Of a stretch of 32,000 bases of DNA, positions 1,720-22,523 are shown one piece after another (position 1 is the first letter of the stretch; every line of letters begins with the position of its first letter). The translations under genes were made by a program, and so were the position numbers. The stretch covers positions 1-32,000 of the forward strand of contig NZ_JBNMGD010000012.1 of NCBI RefSeq assembly GCF_050872065.1, in the 5' to 3' direction. Source of the stretch: Methanobrevibacter sp. Lineage in GTDB: Archaea; Methanobacteriota; Methanobacteria; Methanobacteriales; Methanobacteriaceae. The notes under the pieces were generated by a model. The model worked only from the letters and a program-made list of their open reading frames with translations, ran no database searches and had not been told where the DNA came from.

Positions 1720-2715
1720 ATGAATATTCTAATTGAAGGATTCAACAAATCAATTCACAAAAAAGATAATCAACTTGTCATAAAACAAAAAGATATTATC
1801 CTAGATTCCATTAAAGCAGACAAAATATCTAGCATAGTTATAATAGGAAAAGGATATATAACATTTGATGCCCTAACACTAATTGCAAATAATAACATCA
1901 AACTAATTTCAATTGATTATTTAGGTAAATTAAATTATTTAATAGAATCACCAGACTGGAGAAATGTGAAAATAAAAAAACAGCAGTATTTACTAAGTGA
2001 AAATAAAAAAGGTATCAAGATATCCCGTGAAATAATAAAATCAAAAATGATAAACCAAAAATCAACATTAACAACCTTAAACAAGCGCCGTAAAATTAAA
2101 GAAATAGATGAAATAAAAAATAATATTACTCTTCAAATTAATAGATTGAATTCCATTAAACTAACAAATAATCATGAAAAAGTAAAAATGCAAATAATGG
2201 GGTGTGAAGGAAAAGCATCAGCTCATTATTGGAGTGGGATAAAATTATTAATCCCCAAAGATATAGGATTTGAAAAAAGAACCAAAAAACCAACAGACTT
2301 ATTGAATTCCATGCTGAACTATGGATATGCTATTTTGGCAACTGAAATAACCAAATCAATATTAATAAATGGATTAGATCCATATTGCGGTTTCCTCCAT
2401 TTCGACATGGACCAAAGAACAAGTTTAACATATGATTTAATAGAAGATTTCAGACAACAACTCGTAGACAAAACAGTATTAAATCTTATCAATAGAAAAC
2501 AAGTTACAAATAATGATTTAGATAAAAGAAACAAAACTATAAAATTAGAAAAAAGAAAACTGATTATTTCAAAAATTCAAGAAAAACTACACTCAACAAT
2601 AAAATACAATGATGAAGAAGTAACTTACAGCGAAATAATTAATAAACAATCATCAAATTTAGTAAAAACTCTTTTAAATGATGAAAAATTTAAAGGATTT
2701 AATTTGCATTGGTGA
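1720..2715 (+). CDS. cas1: CRISPR-associated integrase Cas1
   Basis: Cas1 hallmarks are present: GCEGKASAHYW (catalytic Glu region), NSMLNYGYAIL, and GLDPYCGFLHFDMDQRTSLTYDLIEDFR (His plus two Asp). The likely start is ATG 1720 after a GGGTG RBS; the track ORF start at 1693 overlaps cas2. Confidence 0.92.
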   Translation: MNILIEGFNKSIHKKDNQLVIKQKDIILDSIKADKISSIVIIGKGYITFDALTLIANNNIKLISIDYLGKLNYLIESPDWRNVKIKKQQYLLSENKKGIKISREIIKSKMINQKSTLTTLNKRRKIKEIDEIKNNITLQINRLNSIKLTNNHEKVKMQIMGCEGKASAHYWSGIKLLIPKDIGFEKRTKKPTDLLNSMLNYGYAILATEITKSILINGLDPYCGFLHFDMDQRTSLTYDLIEDFRQQLVDKTVLNLINRKQVTNNDLDKRNKTIKLEKRKLIISKIQEKLHSTIKYNDEEVTYSEIINKQSSNLVKTLLNDEKFKGFNLHW

Positions 2716-2900
2716 AGACAACATTAATATTTTTAAGTTATGAATGTTTGTCCTAAAAAACAGATAAAAAAAGATAGTACTTAGATAATTTTTTGAGGAC
2801 AACAATGCCCTTTTTTAAGGAAAAAATCATGACCCTGAAAAAAAATTTAAAAAAGAAAAATAAATACCTTAAATAACTAAAAGAAGAAAAAATAATAAGA
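2716..2900 (+). promoter_or_regulatory. Putative CRISPR leader
   Basis: 185-bp non-coding stretch rich in A/T runs, lying between the cas1 stop and the first repeat copy. This is the classical leader position. No promoter was mapped. Confidence 0.5.
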
Positions 2901-2937
2901 GTTTAAAACGAATATTATCTTAAGTAATATTCAGAAC
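2901..2937 (+). repeat. CRISPR-type repeat R1 (perfect)
   Basis: 37 nt. Parses as GTTTAAAAC, 8-bp stem GAATATTA/TAATATTC around a 7-nt loop TCTTAAG, then AGAAC. First copy after the leader. Confidence 0.9.
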
Positions 2938-2979
2938 CAAAGAATGCGAAAGAAATAATATATTGTGGAGGTAGATAAT

Positions 2980-3234
2980 ATGACATACTTTTTAGATATG
3001 GATTTACATGAACCTTTTGGTATACCAGAAGTTGTTGAAACTACTGCAGATACTCGCACACGTCTAAGCAATAAGACAACTAAGGAATTAGTTGATTATT
3101 TGATTGGGGTGGACAAGAGTATTAAAGCAGGTTTTGAGAATGCGATTTATTTCCAGGAATGGAGTGTTGGATCTGATATTCTACGTAAGCGTGGTTATGA
3201 AATTCATGGACCATCTGATATTTATAATTTATAG
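2980..3234 (+). CDS. Hypothetical protein (84 aa) in the compositionally foreign block
   Basis: ATG 2980 is preceded by GGAGGT at a 7-nt spacing (track ORF starts at GTG 2965). G+C is much higher than the surroundings. No family recognised. Confidence 0.6.
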   Translation: MTYFLDMDLHEPFGIPEVVETTADTRTRLSNKTTKELVDYLIGVDKSIKAGFENAIYFQEWSVGSDILRKRGYEIHGPSDIYNL

Positions 3235-3247
3235 GAGGTAGATATAA

Positions 3248-3931
3248 GTGGTTTTATTAGAATTGTTAGGTGTAGCTTTAGGTGCTTCTTTAGTTAATGG
3301 CATGGCTAAGAAATCAAGTATGAAAGCAAATCCGCAATTAGATGTTAAGCAATTTGATGCTGATTGTGCTAGATATAGTGTGATCGGTCAAGACATCATG
3401 GATGTTGCTGCTCGTTGTGGTGTAAAACCGAATAAATACGGTGTGTTGCCAGAAGATGGGTACAAGCATTGCATGGGATATGTCACTCAGTATGTCAATC
3501 ATCCTGACGATGTTGAATTATTCAAACGTGATTGGTTATTGACTGTTGAACAACAACTCAAAGCTAAATCAAATCTGATGATTCGTAAGTATTGGGATGA
3601 TTATCAGCATCAGTATAATGGTTACTTGAACAACAAAGAGTATTGGACTTCTGGACCGGAGATTGTACTGGAGTTTAAGCACTGGCATGGTTTGCCAAAA
3701 GATCAGCATTTGAAACGCTTAAAAGATATTCAAACTAAAACATTTTGGGGTGAATTATGTTTGCAAGATCCAATCTTACGCAAGAATCCACGCATTAATG
3801 ATTCATACATTGAAGTATGGGTAATGAGAGGTGGTAAACATGACAAACAAGGCAATTGGGTAACACATAATGCTTGGGAAATGACATATGAGATTTGCTG
3901 TGGTGTGTGTGGCTATGACGCAATGTTATAG
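3248..3931 (+). CDS. Hypothetical protein (227 aa) in the compositionally foreign block
   Basis: GTG start preceded by AGGAGGT. Hydrophobic N-terminus (LLELLGVALGASLV) and Cys-rich C-terminus (CCGVCGYD). About 42% G+C by hand count of lines 3361-3480 and 3661-3720. No family recognised. Confidence 0.7.
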   Translation: MVLLELLGVALGASLVNGMAKKSSMKANPQLDVKQFDADCARYSVIGQDIMDVAARCGVKPNKYGVLPEDGYKHCMGYVTQYVNHPDDVELFKRDWLLTVEQQLKAKSNLMIRKYWDDYQHQYNGYLNNKEYWTSGPEIVLEFKHWHGLPKDQHLKRLKDIQTKTFWGELCLQDPILRKNPRINDSYIEVWVMRGGKHDKQGNWVTHNAWEMTYEICCGVCGYDAML

Positions 3932-3955
3932 TCACATTTTTAAAAAGGTGATATT

Positions 3956-4209
3956 ATGGTATTAATTTATAAAACAGAAGATAATGAATATTTTACTTTA
4001 GCAGAATTAGCACAAAAATTTCCAAAAGAGTGGGCTTACTGTTTGAGTTTAAAACGAATATTATCTTAAGTAATATTCAGAACAAAACTTTGGGAAACAG
4101 ATCCAATTGCCTATTATGAATGGAAACGTGAGTGTATTGAACTGAATATGTTACCTGATTTTTTTGGTACTCGTGATAATCCTATTCCTATTGATGAATC
4201 TAAATTATA
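3956..4209 (+). pseudogene. Small ORF split by repeat copy R2
   Basis: ATG 3956 (MVLIYKTEDNEYFTLAELAQKFPKEWAYCL) runs into R2 and stops at the TAA inside the repeat. The same reading frame reopens right after R2 (KLWETDPIAYYEWKRECIELNMLPDFFGTRDNPIPIDESKL) and ends at TAA 4207-4209. Confidence 0.45.
4047..4083 (+). repeat. CRISPR-type repeat R2 (perfect)
   Basis: Identical 37-mer, same orientation as R1. Confidence 0.9.
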
Positions 4210-4229
4210 AAACTTTTTTTTTAAATTTT

Positions 4230-4266
4230 GTTCTGAATATTACTTAAGATAATATTCGTTTTAAAC
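4230..4266 (-). repeat. CRISPR-type repeat R3 (perfect, inverted)
   Basis: Exact reverse complement of the 37-mer, 146 bp from R2. Confidence 0.9.
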
Positions 4267-4306
4267 GTAATAAAAATATGTATGTTAAGGATTGGAGTGA
4301 AAACAA

Positions 4307-5419
4307 ATGGTGGAGAAAAAACTCAAAAAGTCAGATGAAAGATTTGGTCTTGAATTTGAAGTTAAGAAAAATACAAAGAATGCAAACCGTATCGGATTCA
4401 GTAATACATTATTTGATGTTGGTGAAAAAGTCTATGTTCTGTCAGAAGAGCAGCACTATGATATTATAAAACAGATAGATCAGGTTGATGAATACAAAGA
4501 AAGAATAGCTGAACTTGAAACTGAAATAGCTAATGGATTAACAGACAATAATCTTGAAAATGAACTTCAGGAAAAAGATCAAATGATTAACACTCTGAAA
4601 GATAGGGTTGATTCACTTGGAAAAGAACTTGAATCAAATAAATCAGAAGTTAAAGTCCATGATAAAGATGAAATGGAAGAGTTAAAAGAACAGCTTAAAA
4701 GTTCACAGTCTCAGGAAGCTTATTGGAAAAATGCTTATGAAAATCTGATTGATACATCTGATGAATTATCTGCCAGAAATGAATCCCTCATTAAAGAAAA
4801 TGAAAAACTAAGAAACGATAACAATAACATTAACGAAACCAACAAATTGTTAAATGACAATATGATGGGATTAAACGATAACTATAAAGAAACAAAAGAC
4901 GAACTCCAGTCCAATTTTGAAGAAAAGGAAAATGAATTAAAAGAAACCATTGAAAAACAACAATCTCATATAGATGAATTAAATGATAAATTACAATCCT
5001 TATCCAGTCTTAAAGAATATATTCCACCAAAAGAACATTATGAAGCACTTGAGGAATTGAAAGATAAAATAAAAGAAGTTGAAACAGAATTAAACAAAGC
5101 CAATGCTGAAATCAATCTTAAACTATCCAATCAGAAATCTGAACTGGAAATAAAACACACTGAAGAAAAAGCACAAATGCTAATAGCTTACAATCAAGAG
5201 CTTAACAATAACAAATTAAAATATAATGAACTAGCAAAAGATTATAATCATTTACTTGGAGATGCTAATTCATTATCAAGAATAAACACTTTCTTTAATG
5301 GGAAACATAAACTAATTGTTAAAGATAAAGAACCTGTGGAACTTGAAGAGATAGAGGTGGAAAAAGAACCAACAGAAACAATAGAATATGTTCCCAAAGA
5401 CAAAGTAACATTAATATGA
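4307..5419 (+). CDS. Coiled-coil protein (370 aa), function unknown
   Basis: GGAGTGA RBS before the ATG. Long E/K/N/L-rich heptad-like stretches (ELETEIANG..., LKEQLKSSQ..., ELNDKLQSL...). The last 82 nt are duplicated at 6949-7030. Confidence 0.75.
   Translation: MVEKKLKKSDERFGLEFEVKKNTKNANRIGFSNTLFDVGEKVYVLSEEQHYDIIKQIDQVDEYKERIAELETEIANGLTDNNLENELQEKDQMINTLKDRVDSLGKELESNKSEVKVHDKDEMEELKEQLKSSQSQEAYWKNAYENLIDTSDELSARNESLIKENEKLRNDNNNINETNKLLNDNMMGLNDNYKETKDELQSNFEEKENELKETIEKQQSHIDELNDKLQSLSSLKEYIPPKEHYEALEELKDKIKEVETELNKANAEINLKLSNQKSELEIKHTEEKAQMLIAYNQELNNNKLKYNELAKDYNHLLGDANSLSRINTFFNGKHKLIVKDKEPVELEEIEVEKEPTETIEYVPKDKVTLI
5336..5417 (+). repeat. 82-bp direct repeat, left copy (3' end of the coiled-coil gene)
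   Basis: GTGGAACTTGAAGAGATAGAGGTGG...AACATTAATAT matches 6949-7030 at 80 of 82 positions. Confidence 0.9.
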
Positions 5420-5452
5420 ATATTTATTTATTAATATATGAAAGGTGAAACT

Positions 5453-6925
5453 ATGGATAAAGCATCAGAAAAAGTACCTAAAGTATTTATATCTTATTCT
5501 TGGACAAATGAAGAACATATAGAACAAGTTATAGAATTTGCTACATATTTGGTTAATAATCATGTTGATGTCATATTGGATGAATGGGATGCTCCTGAAG
5601 GAATAGACTTAAATTATTTCATGGAAGAAAATGTTAGATCAGAAGACACAGATTTTGTTCTCATAATTTCTGATAAAGAATATGCTCGTAAAGCTAACGA
5701 AAGAACGGGTGGTGTTGGTACTGAAACACAAATTATTAGCAAAAGAGTTTATGAAGATGTAAACCAAACAAAGTTTATCCCAATAGTTTGGCAAAATGAT
5801 GATGATGGAAAACCATGTCTACCAGATTATTTAGCATCTAGAAGATATTTTGATTTAACACCGAAGAATAGATATTCAAATTCTGAAAAAGTATTACGAA
5901 GATTACATGGTATTCCAGAAAATCCAAAACCAAAATTGGGTGAATTTCCTAAGAAATTGTTAGAAACTAATAAATATTATCCCTCGTTAAAAGAAATTAT
6001 CGAAACATTTGATGAAAAAATTGAAAAAAATCCTAAATCAATCAATTCAATTTCAAGACATTTCTTTAAAGATTTTTTACATAATTTTGATGAGTTTAAA
6101 ATAAAATTTCAGACACGAAATGCGTTAGAAATTGCTAATCAATTACACGATAATATTGAAGAGTTTATTCCATTAAGAAATTATTATATTGAATTTATTG
6201 AAAAAATTACTCAAGTTTATGAGTTTGCCCCAGTAGATGGCGATATAATTAAAGAATTATTTGAAAATATTTATTCTAACTATTTTATACCTAAACCTGG
6301 TGAATCTTATATAAGTGAAGATTTTATGAATTTTGACTTTATCGTAAGAGAACTTTTTTTATATACAATTACTATCTCAATTAAAAATGAATATTACCAA
6401 CTTACAAGTAATCTTTTAAACACTCCGTATTTTTTTAATGACCCATATAATTCTAATGATACTAAAACATTTTTAGATTTGGACAAAAGAAGATATGTTC
6501 GTACTGATGAATATTTAACATATTATTGTAAGGAACATAATCTTAATAAATTAACTGGGATGGGACATTTTTTGATTTCAAGAATTCATAAAAATTATGT
6601 AATTGAAGAATTAGTAAACTCAGACATCTTATGTTGTCATATTTCTATAATTAATTTGCAGGATTCCGATGGTTGGTTCCCATTTACATATATTTACAAA
6701 GAAACAAAGTACATGCATTTATATCAAAAATTAATTTCTGAAAGTTATTATAAGAAAGTTAAATGTATCTTTGACATTGAATCTAAAGAAGAATTGGTAA
6801 AGAAGATTAAATATTCTGATGAGTATTTTGGAAAAATGAGATATGGATTTAGAAGTGTTTTCATGAATTATGTTAAACCAATTAGTGAATATATTAATGC
6901 TGATGAAATTGCAAGTAGAAAATAG
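5453..6925 (+). CDS. TIR/SEFIR-like domain protein with a roughly 300-aa uncharacterised C-terminal domain
   Basis: The N-terminus KVFISYSWTNEEH...VDVILDEWD...FVLIISDKEYARKANERTGGVGTETQII...KFIPIVW matches the bacterial TIR-like/SEFIR pattern (FISYSW, DxWD, GGVGxE). ATG 5453 follows an AAAGGTGA RBS; the track start is 5438. Confidence 0.7.
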   Translation: MDKASEKVPKVFISYSWTNEEHIEQVIEFATYLVNNHVDVILDEWDAPEGIDLNYFMEENVRSEDTDFVLIISDKEYARKANERTGGVGTETQIISKRVYEDVNQTKFIPIVWQNDDDGKPCLPDYLASRRYFDLTPKNRYSNSEKVLRRLHGIPENPKPKLGEFPKKLLETNKYYPSLKEIIETFDEKIEKNPKSINSISRHFFKDFLHNFDEFKIKFQTRNALEIANQLHDNIEEFIPLRNYYIEFIEKITQVYEFAPVDGDIIKELFENIYSNYFIPKPGESYISEDFMNFDFIVRELFLYTITISIKNEYYQLTSNLLNTPYFFNDPYNSNDTKTFLDLDKRRYVRTDEYLTYYCKEHNLNKLTGMGHFLISRIHKNYVIEELVNSDILCCHISIINLQDSDGWFPFTYIYKETKYMHLYQKLISESYYKKVKCIFDIESKEELVKKIKYSDEYFGKMRYGFRSVFMNYVKPISEYINADEIASRK

Positions 6926-6948
6926 TTTGTATATACCAATATTTAAAA

Positions 6949-7030
6949 GTGGAACTTGAAGAGATAGATGTGGAAAAAGAACCAACAGAAACAATAGAAT
7001 ATGTTTCCAAAGACAAAGTAACATTAATAT
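6949..7030 (+). repeat. 82-bp direct repeat, right copy
   Basis: 80/82 identical to 5336-5417. It retains the coding frame of the coiled-coil C-terminus (VELEEIDVEKEPTETIEYVSKDKVTLI, then a stop) without an upstream gene body. Confidence 0.9.
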
Positions 7031-7033
7031 AAA

Positions 7034-7564
7034 CTATTCAATTGATTTGAGTATCTCATCCATCAATTCAGAAGTGTTAATGTTATTTTCCTCACCTATT
7101 TCATATTCAATAACAGATCCAACCAGCTTGTCAAGGGATCTATCTTGAATAGCTGAAATGATTCTTAACTTCATGTGAGTTTCAAGATCTACTTTAACAT
7201 TAATTCTTTTTCTGGGATTGCCTTTATTTAATAGCTTATCGTTAATATCATATGTAGAATTGTCTATATCTTTTCTTTTGAACCAGTCATCTTCATTAAC
7301 ATCTTTAAAAGCATCTTCAACATATTTGGCTATATCAATATCTGCAACTTTATCTTCAATAATGGATGTTGCAACTTTTTCTAAACTGGAATCTTTTGAA
7401 GCTGCAATAACTTTTAACTTCTTGTGAGTGTTTGGGAATAGCTTAACAGTTATTTGTTTTCTTTGTGTTTCAATATCGTTAATGTAGTCTTCTTTAACTT
7501 CTTTTATGGCGTTTTCTCTTTGAACTTGTTTTTCAATAAGCTCTTCAATTTTATTGTCTGTCAT
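7034..7564 (-). CDS. Tandem ribbon-helix-helix (CopG/Arc-like) DNA-binding protein
   Basis: Two internal RHH-like units: KQITVKLFPNTHKKLKVIAASKDSSLEKVATSIIEDKV and KRINVKVDLETHMKLRIISAIQDRSLDKLVGSVIEYEI. AGGAGGA RBS upstream. Confidence 0.7.
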   Translation of the reverse strand: MTDNKIEELIEKQVQRENAIKEVKEDYINDIETQRKQITVKLFPNTHKKLKVIAASKDSSLEKVATSIIEDKVADIDIAKYVEDAFKDVNEDDWFKRKDIDNSTYDINDKLLNKGNPRKRINVKVDLETHMKLRIISAIQDRSLDKLVGSVIEYEIGEENNINTSELMDEILKSIE

Positions 7565-7584
7565 GTTATTTTCCTCCTGTATGT

Positions 7585-7619
7585 TTAATAATGTAATTAC
7601 ATTAATAATGTATTTACAT
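7585..7619. promoter_or_regulatory. Tandem palindromic operator-like sites upstream of the RHH gene
   Basis: TTAATAATGTAATTACAT is followed directly by TAATAATGTATTTACAT. The cores are the perfect 12-bp palindrome ATGTAATTACAT (7591-7602) and the near-palindrome ATGTATTTACAT (7608-7619). The sites lie 20-55 bp upstream of the RHH start codon. Confidence 0.5.
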
Positions 7620-7678
7620 AATATATTTTTGTTGATATATAAATATTATGTTATTTTGAAAAATAAGCTGCCCATCTC

Positions 7679-7725
7679 TGATGGACAGGTTGCGACGAGT
7701 GAAACGAGTCGCAATAGGTATATAC
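7679..7725. other. Two adjacent GC-rich hairpins in an AT-rich intergenic region
   Basis: CTGCCCATC-tct-GATGGACAG forms a 9-bp stem with one mismatch. TTGCGAC-gagtgaaacga-GTCGCAA forms a 7-bp stem. Function unknown. Confidence 0.3.
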
Positions 7726-7755
7726 TAAAAAGTTAGTTAATGGTTGGGTTAAAGT

Positions 7756-7773
7756 GACATTAACATTAACGAT
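7756..7773 (+). repeat. Solo left end of the MITE-like element
   Basis: GACATTAACATTAACGAT is identical to the left terminus of copy B (11983-12000). No matching right end follows. Confidence 0.5.
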
Positions 7774-7959
7774 TGATATTTCCTTACTGGAATTATATTT
7801 TCTTACTAGACAGACATCATACTGGCAAATATGATATATTTTTTTTAAAAGTAACTTTATCAGGTTCTTTGAATGATTTTTTACAACTGGTTTTATTAGG
7901 GATTCAAGAGTTTAATTTGTTGATGATTGTTATTAAGTTATTAATTTAATGGAATGGCT

Positions 7960-8072
7960 TTAACATTAACGGCAAGGGTTCTGGAATTGGATTTGGTTTT
8001 CACACTTGGATATATATGCACGAGTTTCAGGAATTAAGTTTTGAAATGGTAATGTTGGATGTTAATGTTAAT
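7960..8072 (+). repeat. MITE-like element, copy A (about 113 bp)
   Basis: Perfect 11-bp terminal inverted repeats: TTAACATTAAC (7960-7970) and GTTAATGTTAA (8061-8071). About 85% identical to copy B by eye. Non-coding. Confidence 0.7.
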
Positions 8073-8128
8073 AGTTTATATCATAACATTTACAAAACTA
8101 GATTTAACAAAATAATGTTTGGATACAT

Positions 8129-9577
8129 ATGTCAAATTATCATTTTTTTAATAGAAAAGAGCTAGAACAAATTCTTGATGAATGCCTTAATAAAACATTA
8201 GGTGAAGTAGATAAGAACAATGTTTTTGAAATAACAAAGACACATCCTAAATATACTGGAATAGCTGGACATGTAATTGAACAATCTGTATTGGGATATC
8301 CTGCAGATACTAGACAAGAACCTGACTTGGATGTTGATGGTGTTAAAACAGAATTAAAAACAACTGGTATTAAATACATAAGAAATAACACTCAATTTGT
8401 TGCTAAAGAACCTATGAGTATTACGGCCGTGTCTCCTCACACTATCGTTAATGAAACATTTGATGATTCTAATTTTTGGCATAAACTAGCTCACTTATTA
8501 TTTGTTTATTATTTATATGACTCACCAACCACTGTTAAAGCTGCAGGATATGCAGACTTTCCAATTAAAGGTTATCAATTTTATGAATTCAATTCAGAGG
8601 ATACAGAAATATTAAAAAATGACTGGACAATAGTTAGAAACTTTATTTCCTGCTTACAGGATAACTATGAGAATTATGAGGATGAATATCCAAGAATATC
8701 TCATGAATTAAGACCTAAGTTGATGTATATTGATACTGCTCCTAAATGGCCACATAATCCAAGATTCAGATTAAAAAGAAGTGTGGTGTCATCTATCATT
8801 CAAGATCACTTTGGTGAATCTTTAGAGCAATTACCTAAAACATATACTTCCTATTCTGAGATTTATGAAACCTGTCATGAGTTGACAGATCAATATAAAA
8901 ATAAACCAATCCATGAACTTGTTGATTTATTGGATATTAAGGTTAATAGAATTAATAAAGCAATTGGAGAACAGATTATTGTTAAAATGTTTGGTGGAAC
9001 ATCAAGGAAAATGCAAAAGATAAAACTATTCAATAGATTAGGAATTATTGGTAAAACATTAACATTAACAGAGAGAGGACTTCGAAAGGAAGATATGAAA
9101 CTGTTTACAATTGATTTTGATGAATTTACTGAAGATATTGAATTTGAAGATTCACAAACCTATGATTACTTTAACAACAATAGATTTTTATCTATAATAT
9201 TCCAAAGGCCTGAAGCTGATGCTGAAATGAAAGATAATATCTTTTTAGGATTTAAAATGCTTACTTTTGAAAGTAGCTTTATTGAAAATGATGTTAAGAA
9301 TACTTGGGAGAGAATTAAGGATTTAATAGTTAATGATAATCTGGAGGATGTTGTTGTCTTAGATAGCCAAGGACAACCTCGTAAAAATAGAAGCGGTAAT
9401 ATAATGAGTGCTCCTAACTTTCCTAAGAGTTCTGAAGGAAATGTATTCGTTAGAGGAACAAGTTCCACATCTGATGAGAAACCATTGACATTGAATGGAA
9501 TAAAAATGTATAGACAACAAATGTGGGTTAAAGGATTGTATATAGTTAATAAGCTCAATGAAGAGGATTATATTTAA
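8129..9577 (+). CDS. Type II restriction endonuclease, Sau3AI/MutH-like (predicted GATC specificity)
   Basis: 482 aa. The N-terminal MutH-like catalytic region is KYTGIAGHVIEQSVLG...EPDLDVDGVKTELKT (D...ELK). Size and the two-domain layout resemble Sau3AI. The gene is paired with a C5-methyltransferase. Confidence 0.7.
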   Translation: MSNYHFFNRKELEQILDECLNKTLGEVDKNNVFEITKTHPKYTGIAGHVIEQSVLGYPADTRQEPDLDVDGVKTELKTTGIKYIRNNTQFVAKEPMSITAVSPHTIVNETFDDSNFWHKLAHLLFVYYLYDSPTTVKAAGYADFPIKGYQFYEFNSEDTEILKNDWTIVRNFISCLQDNYENYEDEYPRISHELRPKLMYIDTAPKWPHNPRFRLKRSVVSSIIQDHFGESLEQLPKTYTSYSEIYETCHELTDQYKNKPIHELVDLLDIKVNRINKAIGEQIIVKMFGGTSRKMQKIKLFNRLGIIGKTLTLTERGLRKEDMKLFTIDFDEFTEDIEFEDSQTYDYFNNNRFLSIIFQRPEADAEMKDNIFLGFKMLTFESSFIENDVKNTWERIKDLIVNDNLEDVVVLDSQGQPRKNRSGNIMSAPNFPKSSEGNVFVRGTSSTSDEKPLTLNGIKMYRQQMWVKGLYIVNKLNEEDYI

Positions 9578-10833
9578 TCTTCTTTTTCAATTACTCCTTC
9601 TAAATATTTTCCTAGCTTTTGAACAATACCTACTACTAAAGCATTACCCATCATAAAATATCTTCTTCTTTCTGTCATAGCTTTAGATTCTATATTAGTC
9701 CAATTATCCGGAAACATTTGTATTCTTTCAGCTTCAACTGGTGTTAATGTTCTATATATGTCTTTTTCTTCATTAACTCCTATGATATGTGAACTTCTGT
9801 TTGTTGTGCTTTCACTTGTGAGCATTGTTCTTGCAGGTGCATCTAAATGATCTGGAAATGCAATAGCTCCTTCTGAATAGCAATAGGTTTCACCATTTGG
9901 TTTTTTCCTTTCAAGTTTTTTAGAACCTTTCAAGTATTTCCATTTCTCAAGTTTTTCACCAGATATAATGTATTTATCATCAAAATTAGTTTCAAGGATG
10001 TCTCCTAATGTTGTAAACTCTCCAGAATAATTTGGTTCAACTTTATATGTATAAACATTACCATTAATCATACATCCTGCATTATAGAAATGAAAATCAA
10101 ACTCATCACTAACGGAAACAATATCTTCATAGTCTTCTTTAGAAATACTTGATTTGCCTTTTTCTAATTGAGTATCTTTAATTGGGAAATTTGTAGCGAA
10201 TATTCCGTTAGTATACACAAGTTGTTCTGCTGAATATTTTATCATGTCTTTAAAGTAATTGGTAGATTTATGATAAGCATAAATGAATACTCTTCTTCTT
10301 TTTTGAGGAAATCCATATTCTGCTGCATTAATTACTCTCCATTCAACTGCATATCCATTATCAAGAAATGACCTTAACATTATTCCAAAGTCACGTCCTC
10401 TTTGAGTTGATGGTGAACGTAATAATCTATCTACATTTTCAAGTAAAACAAATGGAGGTTGTTTGGTTTCAAGGACTTCGGCTATTTCCCACCAGAGAAC
10501 TCCTTTCTTACCTTCAATACCTTTTTCATTGGATAAAGACCTTGCCACTGAATAATCCTGACATGGAAAACCTCCTACAAGTAATGTGTGATTTGGAATG
10601 GTAGTTTTGTCAACTTTGCCAATATCTTCACATACATGATTTTCAGATGCTCCGAATCTTTCAGTATAGCAATCAAATGCTGCCTGTGTTTTAGTGGATG
10701 GTTCCCATTGGTTAGCCCAGATAAAATCCCAATTATCTTTTTCAGTAACTTCATTGCCGTTATATGTTACTTCATTGAATCCACAGCGGAATCCACCAAC
10801 TCCAGCAAATAATTCTACAACTGTCTTATCCAT
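9574..10833 (-). CDS. DNA (cytosine-5)-methyltransferase
   Basis: Motif I ELFAGVGGF, motif IV GGFPCQDYS, motif VI LLENV, motif VIII QKRRRVFI and motif X GNALVV are present. The likely start is MDKTVVELF at 10833 after a GGAGA RBS; the track extends to 10893. The 3' ends overlap the endonuclease gene by 4 nt. Confidence 0.9.
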   Translation of the reverse strand: MDKTVVELFAGVGGFRCGFNEVTYNGNEVTEKDNWDFIWANQWEPSTKTQAAFDCYTERFGASENHVCEDIGKVDKTTIPNHTLLVGGFPCQDYSVARSLSNEKGIEGKKGVLWWEIAEVLETKQPPFVLLENVDRLLRSPSTQRGRDFGIMLRSFLDNGYAVEWRVINAAEYGFPQKRRRVFIYAYHKSTNYFKDMIKYSAEQLVYTNGIFATNFPIKDTQLEKGKSSISKEDYEDIVSVSDEFDFHFYNAGCMINGNVYTYKVEPNYSGEFTTLGDILETNFDDKYIISGEKLEKWKYLKGSKKLERKKPNGETYCYSEGAIAFPDHLDAPARTMLTSESTTNRSSHIIGVNEEKDIYRTLTPVEAERIQMFPDNWTNIESKAMTERRRYFMMGNALVVGIVQKLGKYLEGVIEKED

Positions 10834-10983
10834 AGTAATTTCTCCAATAGTTAATATATTTATAACAAACATATTAATAATTAACGAGATCAATTAAAAA
10901 GTATTAATTAACTTAAAATTAAACTGATATATAAGAATAATTAAATTAAGAATTCAATTCGTTATAGAACATTATAGGAGCAG

Positions 10984-11229
10984 ATGTTTATGGAAAATTT
11001 AGAAAATGTACATGCTATAATTAATACAATAGCTGAAGACCCAAGAGTGGATGTTTCTAAAATAGATGATTATACATTTAATGTTGTTATTAATGGAGAA
11101 CTAATGGATTCATTTGAAAAACTTGGAGAAATCCAAAAGAAGATAAATGATGGTTGTTCTGATGAATATACTCTTAAAACTATTTATGGTGACGGACAAG
11201 ATGCAAAATTAATTTTAGAAAAGAATTAA
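10984..11229 (+). CDS. Hypothetical small acidic protein (81 aa)
   Basis: AGGAG RBS before the ATG. No family recognised. Confidence 0.55.
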   Translation: MFMENLENVHAIINTIAEDPRVDVSKIDDYTFNVVINGELMDSFEKLGEIQKKINDGCSDEYTLKTIYGDGQDAKLILEKN

Positions 11230-11245
11230 ATTCATAGGTCTTACA

Positions 11246-11527
11246 ATGAGTGCTGACATATTTGAAAAGAATAATATAAGATTACCTACTATTGAAGAAG
11301 TTGAGGAAATAGATAATCCTCCAGTTGTAGCACATTTTACCAATGGACTTTGGGATTGGTATGTAATAGCTGGAGAAAAACTTGATGATGATTATCGTTT
11401 ATTAGGATTAGTTAATGGTGATTATAAAGAGATGGGAACATTTACTTTAAAACAATTAGAAAATGTCTCAGCTAAATTAATATCTATTGAAAACATAAGT
11501 CTTCAAGAAGTAAAGTCCAGAATATAA
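11246..11527 (+). CDS. DUF2958-like protein
   Basis: LPTIEEVEEIDNPPVVAHFTNGLWDWYVIAGEKLDDDYRLLGLVNGDYKEMGTFTLKQLE fits the DUF2958 pattern from memory (LP.lys.E...dp.v..kFf.p...WtWY..E....d..fGlV.G.e.ElGyfsL.EL). That family is common on plasmids and conjugative elements. Confidence 0.55.
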   Translation: MSADIFEKNNIRLPTIEEVEEIDNPPVVAHFTNGLWDWYVIAGEKLDDDYRLLGLVNGDYKEMGTFTLKQLENVSAKLISIENISLQEVKSRI

Positions 11528-11528
11528 T

Positions 11529-11906
11529 TTATTTAACATAATCCGTATATTTCATTAATAATCCAATAACTGTAGGTAATGCAGACTCATAACTTGCAAA
11601 TTCTATGTTTTCTTTTTTACCAATATCTATTTCAATTCCTGTAATCCCTTGAATGGTTTCCGTGTTTATACTTTTAATATCTTTGAACTTGATTACTTTT
11701 CTTGGTTTTTGAATTATTAATCTGTCATCTTCGAGAAATAAAGTTGTAGTTATAACTTCTTGTTCTTCTTTAGCTCCGCCTGCAAGAATTCCTGTTGTTA
11801 AAAATAGTGCAGCACTTGCTAAAGCGGTATTGGATTTTTTAGTAATGACCATTTTAATTTCAGCTTTACCTGCTCTTAAAAGTCTTTCAACTTCTGAATC
11901 AACCAT
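11529..11906 (-). CDS. Hypothetical protein (125 aa)
   Basis: AGGTGA RBS, then ATG 11906 (MVDSEVERLL...). The track start at 11915 is the GTG inside the RBS. One central hydrophobic segment. No family recognised. Confidence 0.55.
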   Translation of the reverse strand: MVDSEVERLLRAGKAEIKMVITKKSNTALASAALFLTTGILAGGAKEEQEVITTTLFLEDDRLIIQKPRKVIKFKDIKSINTETIQGITGIEIDIGKKENIEFASYESALPTVIGLLMKYTDYVK

Positions 11907-11982
11907 GATATTCACCTATTAAAATATTGTTTTTATTATTAATTAAATTGATAGATTTATTTTAAGTTGAATTTAATTCATT

Positions 11983-12097
11983 GACATTAACATTAACGAT
12001 AGGGGTTCTATAATTGGATTTGGATTTCGCACTTGGATATAATGTGCAGGGGTTTCGGGAATTAAGTTTTGAATTGGTGATGGTGGATGTTAATGTC
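11983..12097 (+). repeat. MITE-like element, copy B (about 115 bp)
   Basis: Perfect 11-bp terminal inverted repeats: GACATTAACAT (11983-11993) and ATGTTAATGTC (12087-12097). The internal sequence aligns with copy A. Confidence 0.7.
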
Positions 12098-12486
12098 AGC
12101 AGCCAGAATTTTATTGATGTATATATTTATTTTTTTTATTATGTTTGTTCTATATTTTTTTAAATATTTTTTATAATTTGTAATTTAATTTAATATATAA
12201 ATAGTTCGTATCTTTTCTTTTTTTACGTATATTATAAACAGAAATATACGTTTAATTTATATATAAAATAAGAGAATTTTGAAGTTTTTAGTTAAAAATC
12301 CAAAAAAGAACAAGGACATATACATATGTGTATTACAAGTAGTACATTTATCTAAATTAATAAAAAAGTGTATATGTTGCTTTATTATTCATCATATGTT
12401 ACAATTTTGAAAATATTTTTTGGGTGTTAAATGCTTTACAGAAGTTTCTAATATCTTGAATCAATATCAATAGTTATTAATTTAAA

Positions 12487-12605
12487 ACATTAACATTAAC
12501 ATTAACGGAAGGAGTAATGGTTTTGGATTTGGGTTTTAAACTGGGATATATATGAAAGCATTTCTAAAAAGAGTTTTCAAATAGCTATTGGTGAGTATTA
12601 ATGTA
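12487..12605 (+). repeat. MITE-like element, copy C (diverged)
   Basis: Starts ACATTAACATTAACATTAACGG and ends TATTAATGTA. Internal blocks (TTGGATTTGG, GGGATATATATG, GAGTTTTCAA) are colinear with copies A and B, at roughly 65-70% identity by eye. Confidence 0.5.
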
Positions 12606-12754
12606 TCTGTTATTAATCCGCCCCAGTTTACAAATACTTATTCTAAAATATTAGTTCTTGAGCAATTCATTGTCTTTTAGATATTCAATGAATTTCAAAA
12701 TCATTTTTGTTTCACGTTATCCAATAGCAGTTCTGAAAAGTCAGTTACATAATA

Positions 12755-13297
12755 TCATAAAGAAAAATTATATCGTAATGAACGTCCTGCATGTGCTTTA
12801 GATTCTAATTCATCAATTTTCCTATGAATAATTTTTCTTGCATCATCAACACAACAATTTTCATATAAATAATCATTTTCTTCAGGAGTTACTAATTTAT
12901 AATATTCTGAACTATATCCGTATTTTCGGTATATTTCATTTTCTATTGTTTGTAATATTCTTAATTTAAGTTCTAAGAAATAGGTTGTATTTTTTTTATC
13001 ATTTAAATAAATAAAGATTGGAATTGCATTATCACAAACTTCTGTAATTTTAAATAAATTATTGGTTCTTTCGTATATATTACATAATCTTTTATATGTT
13101 GTTGGACTACCAACTTTTTCAGAAACATTTATTTCATATAAGTTTATAGCTCCTTCTAAATCATTCATTTCTTCTAATAGTTTAGCTTTTTTATTTCTTT
13201 CCAATTGTTTTTTTGTTGGTCTAAAATCTGCAAAAACATTAAGAGTATATCTTTTTCTAGCTTTATCATATCTATCTTTTTTATTTGATGTTTCCAT
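12755..13297 (-). CDS. Hypothetical protein (180 aa), possibly TPR-like helical
   Basis: Complete ORF. On the minus strand its ATG lies 2 nt downstream of repeat R4. The AINLYE...YKRLCNIYE pattern is weakly TPR-like. Confidence 0.6.
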   Translation of the reverse strand: METSNKKDRYDKARKRYTLNVFADFRPTKKQLERNKKAKLLEEMNDLEGAINLYEINVSEKVGSPTTYKRLCNIYERTNNLFKITEVCDNAIPIFIYLNDKKNTTYFLELKLRILQTIENEIYRKYGYSSEYYKLVTPEENDYLYENCCVDDARKIIHRKIDELESKAHAGRSLRYNFSL

Positions 13298-13299
13298 AA

Positions 13300-13336
13300 G
13301 TTCTGAATATTACTTAAGATAATATTCGTTTTAAAC
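13300..13336 (-). repeat. CRISPR-type repeat R4 (perfect, inverted)
   Basis: Exact reverse complement of the 37-mer, same orientation as R3. Confidence 0.9.
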
Positions 13337-13391
13337 GTATGAGTACGAAAAATTATTATTCAAACATATAAATCCAGTTCCTGAAATTGAT

Positions 13392-13718
13392 ATGGACTCA
13401 TTCTTTTTAGATAATCAAAATATTAGAGGAGCACGTACAATCGCAGGAACTATATTGGAGAAAAAACAAATAAAAATACAGGGAAAAATTATTCTAAATT
13501 GGGAAGAATTGCATGCTGTAAAAACATATAGTGGACATTTCCATAAACAAATTAATGGATATGTCCGAAAAAATAGTGATTGGGAGAAATATTTCGAGAA
13601 CCAATTAAATAAAGAATTCACAGGAGATGAGACTATAAAAGAAATTGAAGATTTGATTGAAGACCCTGATTCAGCAATGAAGAAAACACCAAGTTTAACT
13701 CAGAGTATGACCAAATGA
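13392..13718 (+). pseudogene. N-terminal fragment of an ADP-ribosyltransferase (C3/exoenzyme-like) domain gene
   Basis: AVKTYSGHFHKQINGYVRKN matches the Y-[TS]-G-x-x-Y-x-x-IN-x-x-LR region of ART toxins, and IEDPDSAMKKTPSLTQSMT matches the following helix. The ORF stops just where the catalytic Arg strand would begin. Confidence 0.35.
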
Positions 13719-13758
13719 AATAAAGTTAAGGTTTTTATTGCTTCAGTCGTTTCATTGG

Positions 13759-13793
13759 GTTTAAATCAAATTATCTTAAGTAATATCCAGAAC
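13759..13793 (+). repeat. CRISPR-type repeat R5 (degenerate, 35 nt)
   Basis: GTTTAAATCAAATTATCTTAAGTAATATCCAGAAC. The right 24 nt differ from consensus at 1 position. The left part has a 2-nt deletion plus substitutions. Confidence 0.7.
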
Positions 13794-13815
13794 TCACTTG
13801 AAAATTAATTTAACA

Positions 13816-14835
13816 CTATTCATTTAATTTAAACCTTAATATATCATCCCAATGCCTTCTTAATACAATTTCACATTCTAGTTTGTCTAAATCATATGCA
13901 ATAGACCATTGAGTATTACTTGCAATATCTTCAGGGTTTGGGTCTTGTGCTGATGCTTTTAATGCTTTCCATACATCAGTTATTCCATTTCCACCATTAT
14001 TTATTACATCCATTATGGAGTCATACCTTTCTTTTCCTTTTCCATATATTCCATTTACTCTATTTGGTTTTACTTTATCAATATACATTCCATAGAAATT
14101 TGTTGCAGCTTTAAATTTAGTAACAACCATTGGTCTTTCTTCTTTTTCAGGATCAAATTCCACTACTCTACCATCCCCAGTCTTATCTGTTATATAGAAA
14201 TGATAATCCCTCCCACTCGTAGATAAAATATCATATTGTTTGATTAATTTTATCGCTTCTTCTGTTGTTTTAGCTTTATCTAAAATTAATCTAATTAATA
14301 CAGTCGTTAATAAAATAGGTTTCCCAGTTTTTTGAATTGTTGGTTTGCTTGTTTGTGTCAATACAGCTATTCCAAGCCCCTTTTCATTAATCCCATCTAA
14401 ACAGATATATGGTGAAATTAAACATAATGCTTTTGTTCCCCTGCTTATTTCGGGATCATTATTATAAATATGATTTAATGCTGCAAATCCTATTGATTTA
14501 TATCCATTTTTAGGATTACATCTTACAAGTAGTGCTGATGAATCAAAAGAGAAATCATAGTTCCTTCCAAATAAAAATTTTTCATCATTTGGCATTGTAA
14601 ATGCTGAACATCCATAATTAGGAATTTCCAATTCCAATTCTACTCCCGGAAGAGCATCTGCGAAGGTTAATTCCATCATTTGTTGATCACTTATCTCTCC
14701 TTCGACAATTGGAGTTACCTTATCGATATTATAATCATATTTTATTTCTATAGAATAAAGATTATAATCATTATATTCCGTAAGTTTTTTAATGGTTTTA
14801 ATTGATTCCATTCTATCTTCTGATAATTCTAACAT
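13816..14835 (-). CDS. Ntn-hydrolase, peptidase C45 / choloylglycine-hydrolase-like
   Basis: NYGCSAFTM (candidate nucleophile Cys after a roughly 74-aa pro-region) followed by FGRNYDF. DKTGDGRVVEF and the overall length fit linear-amide C-N hydrolases. Confidence 0.6.
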   Translation of the reverse strand: MLELSEDRMESIKTIKKLTEYNDYNLYSIEIKYDYNIDKVTPIVEGEISDQQMMELTFADALPGVELELEIPNYGCSAFTMPNDEKFLFGRNYDFSFDSSALLVRCNPKNGYKSIGFAALNHIYNNDPEISRGTKALCLISPYICLDGINEKGLGIAVLTQTSKPTIQKTGKPILLTTVLIRLILDKAKTTEEAIKLIKQYDILSTSGRDYHFYITDKTGDGRVVEFDPEKEERPMVVTKFKAATNFYGMYIDKVKPNRVNGIYGKGKERYDSIMDVINNGGNGITDVWKALKASAQDPNPEDIASNTQWSIAYDLDKLECEIVLRRHWDDILRFKLNE

Positions 14836-14956
14836 TCTTTCATCCTATTAATATTTTTTCTATATTTATAAAAAAAAGTTCAATGAAATACTGACTAATT
14901 TTAAATATTTCACCATTCCATATTTAAAGTTTATGTAAAATTACCCCTTCACCCTA

Positions 14957-14993
14957 GTTTAAAACGAATATTACCTCAAGTAATATTTAAAAC
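14957..14993 (+). repeat. CRISPR-type repeat R6 (degenerate, 33/37)
   Basis: GTTTAAAACGAATATTACCTCAAGTAATATTTAAAAC. There are four substitutions: two in the loop, one turning a stem G-C pair into G-T, and one in the 3' tail. Confidence 0.75.
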
Positions 14994-15354
14994 TGAAAGA
15001 TTAATGAGAATACAGCAAACCCTAAAAGTTGATAATAGCATATTTATATGGTTGAGTTATTACCTACCCATTCTTCAGAAATCATAAAATTATATAACTC
15101 TTTAATTTTTTCGCTTATGAACTGATTATCCTCCTCAAAAACCTGAATCAAAACAGGGACGCCATACACTTTTCAGTTTGAATAAAATTACCAGTTTCAT
15201 TACTTAAAAAAATATATAGAATATATTATTCTCATTTAAAATTTCAAAAAATAAAGTTTGAGGAACTCTACCCCACGCCTTTAATTAAATAATTTACTTT
15301 TGCGAATTTTAATAATGTTTTTCCATTCTTTTTTTATATTCAATAACCCTTTCA

Positions 15355-16624
15355 ATGGTTTCTATTTCTTTATATAATATAATAGACACCCTATTCGTAG
15401 CAGGGATCAGTGCAAATGCATTAACAGCAATTGGAATATTTCCTCCAGTTTATATACTGATTGTATCAATCGGACAAGGTTTAATTACAGGAATGATAAG
15501 CATAATGTCCAATTACATAGGAGCAAATGAAAAAGAAAAAGCAAATAACGTCTTTTGGCATGGGATTTTAATATCCCTTATAATTTCAATAATCTGTTTT
15601 GTATTTGCATTTTTTGGTCTTAAAGAACTATTAATTATCATGGGAGCAGAATCTGTAATAGATCTTACTATGGATTATGCTCAAACAGTATTTGCAGGAA
15701 GTATTATAATAATTTTAAATACTGTAACAATTTCATCTTTAAGAGCAGAAGGAGATATGAAAAAAGCATCAAATATTACCATTTTTGGATTTGTTTTGAA
15801 TATAATTCTTGATTACTTCTTAATATATTTCCTTAATTTTGGAATTTGGGGAGCTGGTGCTGCAACAATACTATCCACATTAATTGGAACAATTGTTGTT
15901 ATATACTGGCTATTTGTTAAGAAAGATACATACCTACAAACTAAATGGTCTCATTTTAAATTTAATATGAAATATATAAAAAATATACTATCTTTAAGTA
16001 TTCCAGCTACTTTAGAAGGGTTTGTAATGAGTTTTCTATTTATATTTGTTAATATGATTTAATAGTAGCTGGTGGAGACATCCATGTTGCAGCATTTACA
16101 GGATCTTAGAAAATACTGTCCTTAGGAATGATACCTGCAATAGGAGTTGAAGCAGCTATTTTAACTATTTCCGAATATTATTTTGGAGCTGAAAATTATA
16201 AGAGAATTAAAAGCATATATAAATATTCAATTATATTTTCCACAACCATCTCAATCATAATAGCTATTATCCTATTTATTTTTGCAAACCAAATTTCATA
16301 CTTATTCACATTATTAAATGGAGATAAATCATTAGGTTACTTAATAGCAAATATCATAAGATTATTTGGAATTTATATAATATTTGTTCCACTTGGTCTT
16401 TCATCAACCGCAATGTTTCAATCAGCACAAAAAGGATTTACTTCATTATCTTTAGTTATTTTAAGAGATCTTTTATTATCAACAATTTTTGCGTATATAT
16501 TGGGAATTCTATTAAACTTCGGAGTTTATGGAATTTATGTAGGAATCATACTTGGATGATTGTATCTTCCATATTTAGTTATTTCTACTTTAATTGGTAT
16601 TTAGATAAACTTAAAAATAATTAA
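15355..16624 (+). pseudogene. MATE-family efflux transporter, disrupted
   Basis: MATE-like TM pattern (YNIIDTLFVAG...ALTAIG...). About 25 N-terminal residues are missing. There are in-frame stops at 16060 and about 16107. The reading frame changes between 15355-16062 and 16128-16559, and again near 16556. Confidence 0.65.
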
Positions 16625-21974: not shown

Positions 21975-22523
21975 ACATATCACCTTTTTAATTAAGTTTT
22001 AAGCCTAAATTAATAATATACCACCATTATATCATTATTAATACTATAAACTTTAATATAAATAAATATTATTAAAATAAATACTCACATTATATTATCT
22101 CTTTGACTAATAAATTTTTAACCTATTCCTACTTCTTTTTGGAGGTTCAAAAATTATTTGATGAAATTCAATGGGATTCTACAAATTATGAAAATAAAAT
22201 TTCTGTTGAGGATATTCAATTATTTTTAGATGAATATGCCAAGGAAATTTGAATCCAACAATTACTTTCATGTGATAATAAAGTTGAATATACTTATCAC
22301 TCAGATAAAAATAACTATTTAAAATTATAAAAACCAACTAGTGGAAACTGAATCCTTTACGCTTACATCTAGTACAATACATTTCCCACCACATGATTTA
22401 AAAATGTGTCTTTTAGAAAATATACATATAAAAATAGAAAAAAATTAGAAAAAAGCTTTAAAAAGCCCTTTTCTATTGATTATTAAATTTCACAACTTTT
22501 CATGTAAATTAAAAGAATTTGTT

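Follow-up and report, generated by a model that had tools for sequence, protein, structure and literature searches.

Adaptation in CRISPR systems is defined by a molecular ruler, which yields short spacers of fixed length. The locus described here lies in the chromosome of a Methanobrevibacter sp., in a stretch of 32,000 nucleotides (positions 1 to 32,000 of contig NZ_JBNMGD010000012.1, assembly GCF_050872065.1, denoted here as the window), and it comprises the adjacent genes cas2 and cas1, a leader that is conserved and a hairpin repeat of 37 nt, but its "spacers" are pieces of foreign DNA of 0.15-12.6 kb and not of about 35 nt. Sequence comparison supports the view that insert A, the piece closest to the leader, derives from a Methanobrevibacter virus-like element, as a 1.1-kb fragment acquired recently and standing in the position of the newest spacer. 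This fragment was cut from its donor regardless of gene borders and joined base-precisely to two perfect, whole repeats. More widely, this is a conserved Cas1-Cas2 locus without nearby effectors, and its long inserts, which have counterparts of similar size in related Methanobrevibacter strains, suggest that this Cas1-Cas2 captures long DNA.

The locus shares with canonical CRISPR adaptation the cas2-cas1 pair, an AT-rich leader, a hairpin repeat, a base-precise viral insert, the duplication of the whole repeat, and a polarity in which the newest insert is found at the leader end and decayed repeats at the far end. In contrast, its inserts span from 146 nt to 12.6 kb (versus about 30-45 nt) and carry whole genes, two of the repeats are inverted, and no effector or cas6 gene was found near any of the five loci inspected, which belong to four Methanobrevibacter lineages. 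Integration across a staggered cut is the known chemistry of both Cas1-Cas2 and casposases, and stand-alone adaptation modules exist (PMC6452270). Casposons are reminiscent of this locus in that a Cas1-family integrase would insert kilobase DNA with duplication of the target (PMC6452270); their arrays, separated by duplicated targets, are conceptually similar, and among solved structures the casposase 6opm ranks second in similarity to the Cas1 found here (107 bits). However, this Cas1 is of the CRISPR type, paired with Cas2 and encoded outside the inserts, which are unrelated random fragments and do not possess terminal inverted repeats themselves; the target that is duplicated has 37 nt, and no PolB was found in the window.

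Integrons, including those of archaea (PMC9668308), likewise place an integrase gene beside an array with polarity, in which short, imperfectly palindromic repeats alternate with units the size of genes, and their content varies between strains and includes adaptive genes (here defence, adhesin-like and hydrolase genes). The repeats of this locus, unlike cassette-borne attC sites, are identical duplicated copies, many units are truncated and stand in either orientation, the donor DNA lacks the site, and no Phage_integrase match was obtained among the open reading frames (ORFs) of the window. Long "spacers" in bacterial arrays have been explained as insertion sequence (IS) insertions (PMC4524480). 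Such disrupted arrays also show inter-repeat distances of at least 100 nt in a CRISPR-like array, but here there is no transposase, IS end or short-spacer remnant, and the foreign DNA abuts the repeats. Finally, the mini-arrays and solitary repeat units of viruses link viral DNA to host CRISPR repeats (PMC6858448; reviewed in PMC8616872), whereas neither the donors of the present inserts nor 2.9 million IMG/VR contigs contain this repeat family. Text searches of the literature, which were not exhaustive, gave only IS-disrupted arrays and general statements on stand-alone adaptation modules, and no description of kilobase-insert arrays or of gene capture by Cas1-Cas2.

The leader-proximal insert and its repeats

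The features that carry the argument are the following (R1 to R6* denote the copies of the repeat):

1443-1718, +: cas2, 91 aa (Pfam CRISPR_Cas2, 7.8e-15; TIGR01573, 48 bits)
1720-2715, +: cas1, 331 aa, CRISPR-type (Pfam Cas_Cas1, 2.8e-67; TIGR00287, 235 bits)
2716-2900, +: leader, 185 nt, AT-rich, from the leader alignment
2901-2937, +: R1, exact, the leader-proximal repeat
2938-4046, +: insert A, 1,109 nt, 35.3% G+C, virus-like element fragment between R1 and R2
2938-2974, +: remnant of an upstream viral gene in A (last 12 codons and stop)
2980-3234, +: 84-aa gene in A, intact
3248-3931, +: gene for a 227-aa membrane-anchored protein in A, intact
3956-4045, +: start of viral gene Y in A, first 30 codons, identical to the 83-aa protein of L008
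4047-4083, +: R2, exact, direct relative to R1
4230-4266, -: R3, exact, inverted
13300-13336, -: R4, exact, inverted; orthologous copy in a same-species genome
13759-13793, +: R5*, decayed (2 substitutions, 2 deletions), identical in that genome
14957-14993, +: R6*, decayed terminal repeat (4 substitutions), shared with that genome

The origin of insert A was deduced from BLASTN matches to virus-like metagenomic contigs, with identities of 97.7% to L034 (751 nt), 94.6% to L008 and 93.0% to L035 (1,108 nt). The 84-aa protein is 100% identical to proteins of L034 and L035, and the 227-aa protein has 31 metagenomic homologues (P0001-P0031). In L008, L009 and L034 these are found in long co-directional clusters of small genes, together with PcfJ-type, ASCH, HNH and DUF3310 proteins, and in L010 and L011 the context is that of a head-tailed virus. 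In L011 the homologue of the 227-aa gene lies 2.4 kb from a terminase gene, and the TerL protein of this contig shares 94.5% identity with its counterpart in a Methanobacteriales virus of 34 kb, Caudoviricetes sp. vir323; through L011, a homologue is placed in a genome of the vir323 type, which has genes for a terminase, a portal and an HK97 capsid. The nearest donors of A (L034, L008 and L009) are virus-like by their PcfJ-type PHROGs, HNH and DUF3310 proteins, and no capsid gene was seen on their available stretches. When the block at 2938-4229, the 227-aa protein and the third small ORF (ORF3) were compared by BLASTN and TBLASTN with 50,697 GenBank phages, no match was obtained; the link to vir323 came solely from the terminase of the L011 relative. 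The 227-aa protein had no Pfam, PHROG, NCBIfam or PADLOC match either, and its AlphaFold2 model (pLDDT 86.7) gave no Foldseek match at E<=0.001 in PDB or BFVD. Insert A is not an integrated provirus, as it represents 1.1 kb of an element known from longer contigs (L034, at least 11.7 kb; L009, up to 148 kb).

Both ends of A can be placed with precision. On the left, the donors read ...TGTAATAATTG followed by CAAAGAATGCG and the window reads ...ATTCAGAAC followed by CAAAGAATGCG, so homology starts at 2938, the first base after R1, and the cut falls 12 codons before the stop of the upstream viral gene; there is no terminal microhomology at this joint (AAC versus TTG). On the right, the donors read ...CTTACTGTTT followed by AAAACATG and the window ...CTTACTGTTTGA followed by GTTTAAAAC..., homology ending 0-2 nt from R2, and the cut interrupts the viral gene Y after codon 30. 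The same arrangement was recovered in L036, a contig of 1,167 nt from three other samples that consists of A with about 30 nt of the repeat on each side.

The repeat unit, GTTTAAAACGAATATTATCTTAAGTAATATTCAGAAC, has 37 nt, starts with GTTT and ends with ATTCAGAAC. Four exact and two decayed copies are found in the window (0 expected by chance), which gives the several direct copies of a 23-50-nt repeat expected for a CRISPR array, although two of the exact copies are inverted. It folds into a central hairpin of 9 bp (z = -3.1), and the three repeat variants of other lineages fold alike, with a G-U replacement in the stem; hairpin repeats of such form are ordinary in CRISPR. In a separate comparison, the repeats of L046, L047 and L049 differed from that of L048, which has an identical Cas1 protein, in 4 of the 7 loop bases (TCTATTG versus TCACCAG), with stems and ends unchanged and both copies within one strain in agreement. 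When one genome per GTDB species was scanned, the repeat appeared only in the Methanobrevibacter sp. metagenome-assembled genome (MAG) SARD03_bin.040, the same-species genome mentioned above. No full or near-full copy was found in the donor contigs, and neither the exact repeat nor its 23-position family pattern was found in the 2.9 million contigs of IMG/VR; virus-borne copies of the repeat as recombination partners were rejected on these grounds.

The cas genes preceding R1 look functional. The best PDB match of Cas1 was that of Archaeoglobus fulgidus (A. fulgidus Cas1, 4n06; full-length alignment, 221 bits), and the end-to-end alignment showed that the EGK, GFLH and DLxExFRQ catalytic motifs are kept, as corresponds to a full-length CRISPR-type Cas1 integrase with its Glu, His and Asp motifs. 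Almost all Cas1 homologues listed at 63-95% identity have 331 aa. Comparison with three other lineages yielded ratios of nonsynonymous to synonymous substitution (dN/dS) of 0.05-0.09 for cas1 and 0.15-0.33 for cas2, and by these values both genes are under strong purifying selection. Within the leader, the motifs GGACAAC, GTCCTnAAAA, TTTTGAGGACAAC and ATAActaAAAGA..AATAAG, the last one beside the repeat, are kept across the four Methanobrevibacter lineages, and they persist even where synonymous sites (dS) are saturated. As in a CRISPR array, adjacent cas1-cas2 genes and a leader precede the first repeat. The locus by itself is not a complete CRISPR-Cas system: no effector module or cas6 gene for the processing of CRISPR RNA was found in the 32-kb window or within 10 kb of cas1 in L041-L051. 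A scan of 2600-15200 against Rfam gave no match.

A previous sequence-only reading of this DNA had regarded 2938-4229 as a single block of 1.3 kb, compositionally foreign, with about 42% G+C in three counted lines and bracketed by inverted copies of the repeat. Its coordinates and its hand counts of G+C per 60-nt line were correct (27, 25 and 25 for lines 3361, 3421 and 3661; 13, 16 and 14 for lines 1921, 2041 and 6001; 21 and 19 for lines 4081 and 4141), and R1 (+) and R3 (-) are exact. However, an exact R2 lies between them and divides the region into two inserts, A and B, with A flanked by the direct repeats R1 and R2. The value of 42% describes the richest lines counted but not the block, which has 35.3% (A) or 34.0% (2938-4229) in a window of 28.6% overall; 21 of the 533 lines in the window reach 25 G+C or more, three of them inside the block. 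By a sliding-window calculation the composition is an outlier, but a moderate and not an extreme one: windows of 1,109 nt average 28.5% (standard deviation 3.0%), insert A is about 2.3 standard deviations above this mean and represents the second-highest peak, and 1.8% of the windows reach its value. The highest lies at 20761-21869 (37.4%), in a region with an ORF of 597 aa (20190-21983, -) that has no Pfam match. A clearer outlier is the G+C content at third codon positions, 32.5% in the 227-aa gene compared with 15-23% in host genes, and the donor contigs, at 34.4-34.9% G+C, match insert A.

The two tightly packed ORFs noticed in that reading are real and intact (84 aa, 2980-3234; 227 aa, 3248-3931). 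The third small one proved to be a chimera, in which 30 codons of the truncated viral gene run into R2 and stop there. The proposal that the block is recently acquired virus or plasmid DNA in the leader-proximal spacer slot is borne out by the virus-like identity of A, its start at 2938 and the different content of the slot in the same-species MAG. The ORFs are not conserved chromosomal genes at this position, because that MAG holds a different insert of 1,072 nt there.

Long inserts in related lineages

The distances between repeats are long in every locus where they could be measured: 1109, 146, 9033, 422 and 1163 nt in the window, 1072, 1691, 3456 and 12591 nt in the same-species MAG, 433 and about 5530 nt in species 2, and 488 nt in species 3 (two repeats, 525 nt apart). 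None of these 12 intervals falls within 25-60 nt, the range being from 146 nt to 12.6 kb, and the short, near-uniform spacers of a CRISPR array (about 25-70 nt) are absent also from the relatives alone (433-12591 nt). Inter-repeat DNA from mobile elements, another attribute of such arrays, is represented by A, B and part of C (described below); some inserts in relatives correspond to adhesin-like or membrane genes of unclear origin. A PHROG scan of the inserts in related loci gave nothing except phrog_8928 for one ORF, and no consistent motif resembling a protospacer-adjacent motif was seen at the ends of about 10 inserts. Neither A nor B, nor the 433-nt and 5.5-kb inserts of species 2, encode any other integrase or transposase.

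The flanks of the MAG SARD03_bin.040 are about 97% identical to the window, and the comparison of both loci reveals a polarity: the leader-side inserts differ, whereas the distal D, E, R5* and R6* are shared. The 1,691- and 3,456-nt inserts of the MAG carry a membrane protein and an adhesin-like protein of 898 aa (L033), and one of its repeat junctions was confirmed by an independent JGI contig. Its interval of 12,591 nt lies between two inverted repeats and is mostly filled by an adhesin-like ORF that has about 3,458 codons and ends in a membrane anchor at the C-terminus (contig NZ_JBJEIO010000001.1, 498-10871; L031 and L032).

Species 2, whose Cas1 is 90% identical, has cas2-cas1 without nearby effectors, a homologous leader and a variant of the repeat; its 5.5-kb insert contains a flippase gene and an adhesin-like gene (919 aa, L041/L042). 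L041 and L042 are 99.9% identical over 20 kb, and L041 has an extra 470 nt at the leader-proximal repeat, consisting of the 433-nt insert and a 37-nt repeat. L043 presents the same cas1 and leader and a single repeat, and homology stops at the last base of this repeat. It was also observed that a module of 2.9 kb, made of a HEPN-nucleotidyltransferase pair, cas2, cas1, the leader and one repeat, is 99.3% identical between L041 and L043 in genomic surroundings that differ on both sides, which suggests that the module or its neighbourhood is mobile or highly plastic. Two repeats were found in species 3 (Cas1 81% identical) and only one in the isolate genome of M. thaueri (Cas1 64% identical).

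The remaining inserts of the window

Beyond R2, the array continues with the following features:

4084-4229, +: insert B, 146 nt, the last 41 codons of a family-X gene (82 aa) and 19 nt downstream
4267-13299: insert C, 9,033 nt, a mosaic in which vir323-like viral genes mix with defence genes
4307-5419: vir323-like coiled-coil gene in C, at the R3 side, DNA 78% identical to vir323_00029
5438-6925: bSEFIR gene in C (PADLOC, 298 bits)
7034-7564, -: RHH gene in C, vir323-like
8129-9577: Sau3AI-like restriction endonuclease gene in C (PADLOC REase_II, 445 bits)
9574-10893, -: C5 methyltransferase gene in C (PADLOC MTase_II, 564 bits)
13337-13758: segment D, 422 nt, bordered by R4 and R5* with their 5' ends; also kept in the MAG
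13392-13718: 108-aa ORF in D, conserved in the related MAG
13794-14956: segment E, a single gene between the decayed R5* and R6*, conserved in the MAG
13816-14835, -: gene of the C45/choloylglycine-hydrolase family in E (Pfam CBAH and AAT; NCBIfam C45_proenzyme)

Insert B, towards which R2 and R3 both turn their 3' ends, matches phrog_19593 (1.5e-17) and is 91% identical at the nucleotide level to the X gene of L037-L039. The match to phrog_19593 gave rise to the idea that ORF3 was one viral gene split by R2, and this was rejected by the family alignment: the N-terminal part of ORF3 belongs to family Y and the C-terminal part to the unrelated family X (71-87 aa), their in-frame arrangement being coincidental.

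Parts of insert C are 77.9% and 70% identical to vir323 at the nucleotide level, and it is also homologous to L010. By comparison with the latter, homology begins at 4267-4270, directly beside R3 and as base-precise as in A, and C ends 2 nt before R4. It holds only two vir323 genes, structural and integrase genes being absent, and besides its defence genes it contains small ORFs and three copies of a virus-type element of about 130 nt. The bSEFIR/TIR gene sits between the coiled-coil and RHH genes, which adjoin in vir323 and L010, and this insertion lies between direct repeats of 85 nt that are 96% identical (5336-5420 and 6949-7033), a duplication of the coiled-coil gene's 3' end. The intergenic element of about 130 nt has terminal inverted repeats of 14 nt, ACATTAACATTAAC...GTTAATGTTAATGT, and a conserved core, GATATATATGAAAGGGTTTCAGAAA. 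Its copies in C (7941-8078, 11971-12098 and 12466-12588) have no Rfam match; it occurs also in vir323 (L050; 20519-20642 and 28557-28694), L010 and L011, and it could be similar to a miniature inverted-repeat transposable element or represent a small regulatory or RNA element.

Segments D and E, to judge from their conservation in the MAG, look like old, fixed captures. The left end of the window contains a ClC channel gene followed by cas2 and cas1, and methanogen-type housekeeping proteins fill its right-hand two thirds (DUF2070, DUF4013, NFACT, polyferredoxin and B12-radical-SAM proteins). A MatE transporter gene (15355-16559) is split into ORFs of 235 and 143 aa, as it is in several Logan contigs, probably due to a frameshift or stop.

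Origin of the array and its significance

The explanation that we infer to be the best, and that we hold with slightly more belief than doubt, is that Cas1-Cas2 integrated long, untrimmed DNA with duplication of the repeat. Briefly, a long fragment would undergo full-site integration by Cas1-Cas2 at the leader-repeat junction, with its two 3'-OH ends attacking both borders of the first repeat, and gap repair would then duplicate the 37 nt of this repeat; the chemistry would be that of normal spacer acquisition and of casposon insertion, minus a length ruler or a trimming step. Through repeated events and deletions between repeats, an array of kilobase inserts would be built up and renewed, in which new inserts occupy the leader end while old, shared inserts and decayed repeats remain at the far end. 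Integration across a staggered cut is proposed because the 37-nt duplication is perfect, the junctions are base-precise, the donors are free of the repeat and the ends fall inside genes, and also because the newest, polymorphic unit is leader-proximal, the distal repeats are decayed and no other integrase was found.

Several observations weigh against this proposal. Known Cas1-Cas2 complexes measure the length of the spacer, and we know of no description of kilobase DNA being integrated by a complex that contains Cas2; besides, the lineages compared number only four. Exactly where A ends on the right, the donor has GTTTAAAAC, identical to the first 9 nt of the repeat (8988 in L008 and 1441 in L035, corresponding to 4041-4046 of the window, where the junction reads GTTTGA followed by GTTTAAAAC), a coincidence with a chance expectation of about 4e-4; viral contigs totalling 97 kb contain this 9-mer three times, two of these occurrences being the orthologous right-end site of A. 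Similarly, 21 of the 37 positions of the repeat are matched by the donor sequence that spans the left junction (P about 0.014). By these similarities, sequence resemblance may have guided the joint, which would also fit a recombination or microhomology route. An indel of 367 nt, containing a 97-aa ORF, abuts the 5' end of the repeat without an extra copy of it (578-614 in L040 versus 4371-4774 in L033, two assemblies of one junction), and the difference between L041 and L042 could equally be a deletion between two repeats. Finally, simple leader-proximal integration cannot yield the inverted R3 and R4. A second leader beside R4 was considered and rejected, as segment D, which borders it, lacks the leader motifs; the inversion could possibly reflect the reverse integration of a self-derived, repeat-containing fragment, or an intramolecular strand transfer.

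The inverted R3 and R4, the 9-mer in the donor, the similarity at the left junction and the 367-nt indel leave room for the main rival of integration by Cas1-Cas2: that DNA from a virus, a mobile element or the array of another strain recombined at the repeats and was then trimmed by deletions, Cas1-Cas2 being uninvolved. We regard this as rather unlikely. It would accommodate the 9 nt at the right junction and the weakly repeat-like left one, the "GA" that precedes both R1 and R2, a 9-kb mosaic (C) resembling a chunk of a vir323-like genome with morons, and the rearrangements indicated by the inverted repeats and by the inversion of C relative to A (according to the map of L010); identical repeats would, in addition, permit the exchange of cassettes between strains. 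Against it, the donor contigs and IMG/VR lack a full or near-full repeat, the left junction shows no terminal microhomology, the flanking repeats are perfect and not hybrid, the fragment ends inside genes, and the unit formed by an insert and one repeat recurs leader-proximally in several lineages. Moreover, it leaves unexplained the conserved cas2-cas1 and leader beside every such array. An unlinked tyrosine recombinase, for which the repeat would be the core site of an integron-like cassette array placed by chance beside cas2-cas1, is improbable. The geometry of the repeat, two inverted arms of 8 nt (GAATATTA/TAATATTC) around a centre of 7 nt, would suit such an enzyme, as would the change of 4 of the 7 central bases between strains with identical Cas1, the neat single-gene units D and E, and the Phage_integrase gene found 0.7 kb upstream of cas2 in M. 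thaueri. However, that hairpin form is ordinary for CRISPR, the locus has no linked recombinase gene in the window, in species 2 or in species 3, and A and B are gene fragments rather than cassettes; a crossover with a pseudo-site in the donor would, furthermore, leave hybrid sites, whereas the 37 nt of the repeats are perfect and foreign DNA begins only beyond them.

Two further readings carry little weight. In an assembly chimera, host and virus contigs would have been joined at a shared 37-mer, and it is true that Logan contigs, assembled with k=31, all break inside the repeat (at R4, L022-L030 start inside it and L012-L021 end inside it) and that the order R2-B-R3-C across repeats is not independently confirmed. 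This artefact is nonetheless very improbable: all the repeat-insert junctions tested recur in independent samples (L036 in three; L022-L030; L012-L021), reproduction in independent samples and assemblies extending to L001-L007, L012-L030, L036 and L040; independent SPAdes and megahit assemblies cross several repeats (L033, L040, L041, L042, L044 and L048); and the donor viruses share just 9 nt with the repeat, too little for a false join. The possibility that these are ordinary chromosomal genes of unusual composition, always at this position, could be argued from the moderate excess of G+C and from the richer region elsewhere in the window, but it is practically untenable. On sequence comparison it is refuted by the other DNA that the same-species MAG holds in the slot and by the 93-98% identity to virus-like contigs, which embed the sequence in long co-directional clusters.

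Why such a locus would be conserved is a matter of speculation: the module might be retained because the capture of long DNA, with its virus, defence and adhesin-like genes, is useful, or it might serve another array in trans. Going further than the integration of long DNA as such, we put forward tentatively, and with more doubt than conviction, that one Methanobrevibacter clade of Cas1-Cas2 modules lacking nearby effectors could be a long-DNA capture system, from which islands of virus, defence and adhesin-like genes, specific to each strain, would result. In the same tentative reading it could be an integron-like platform working with a CRISPR integrase, and a living intermediate, or a reversion, between casposon transposition and spacer acquisition.

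As regards annotation, CRISPR finders will miss arrays of this kind, and pipelines that link viruses to hosts will misread them as proviruses. If integration of long DNA by Cas1-Cas2 is correct, a CRISPR integrase works, or was repurposed to work, on long DNA in vivo, which would provide a testable bridge from casposons to CRISPR and could offer a natural enzyme for the site-specific insertion of kilobase DNA. For the methanogens of the gut and rumen it would mean a new route of gene acquisition, through inserts with genes for adhesin-like proteins, for defence (bSEFIR and restriction-modification) and for a member of the bile-salt-hydrolase family.

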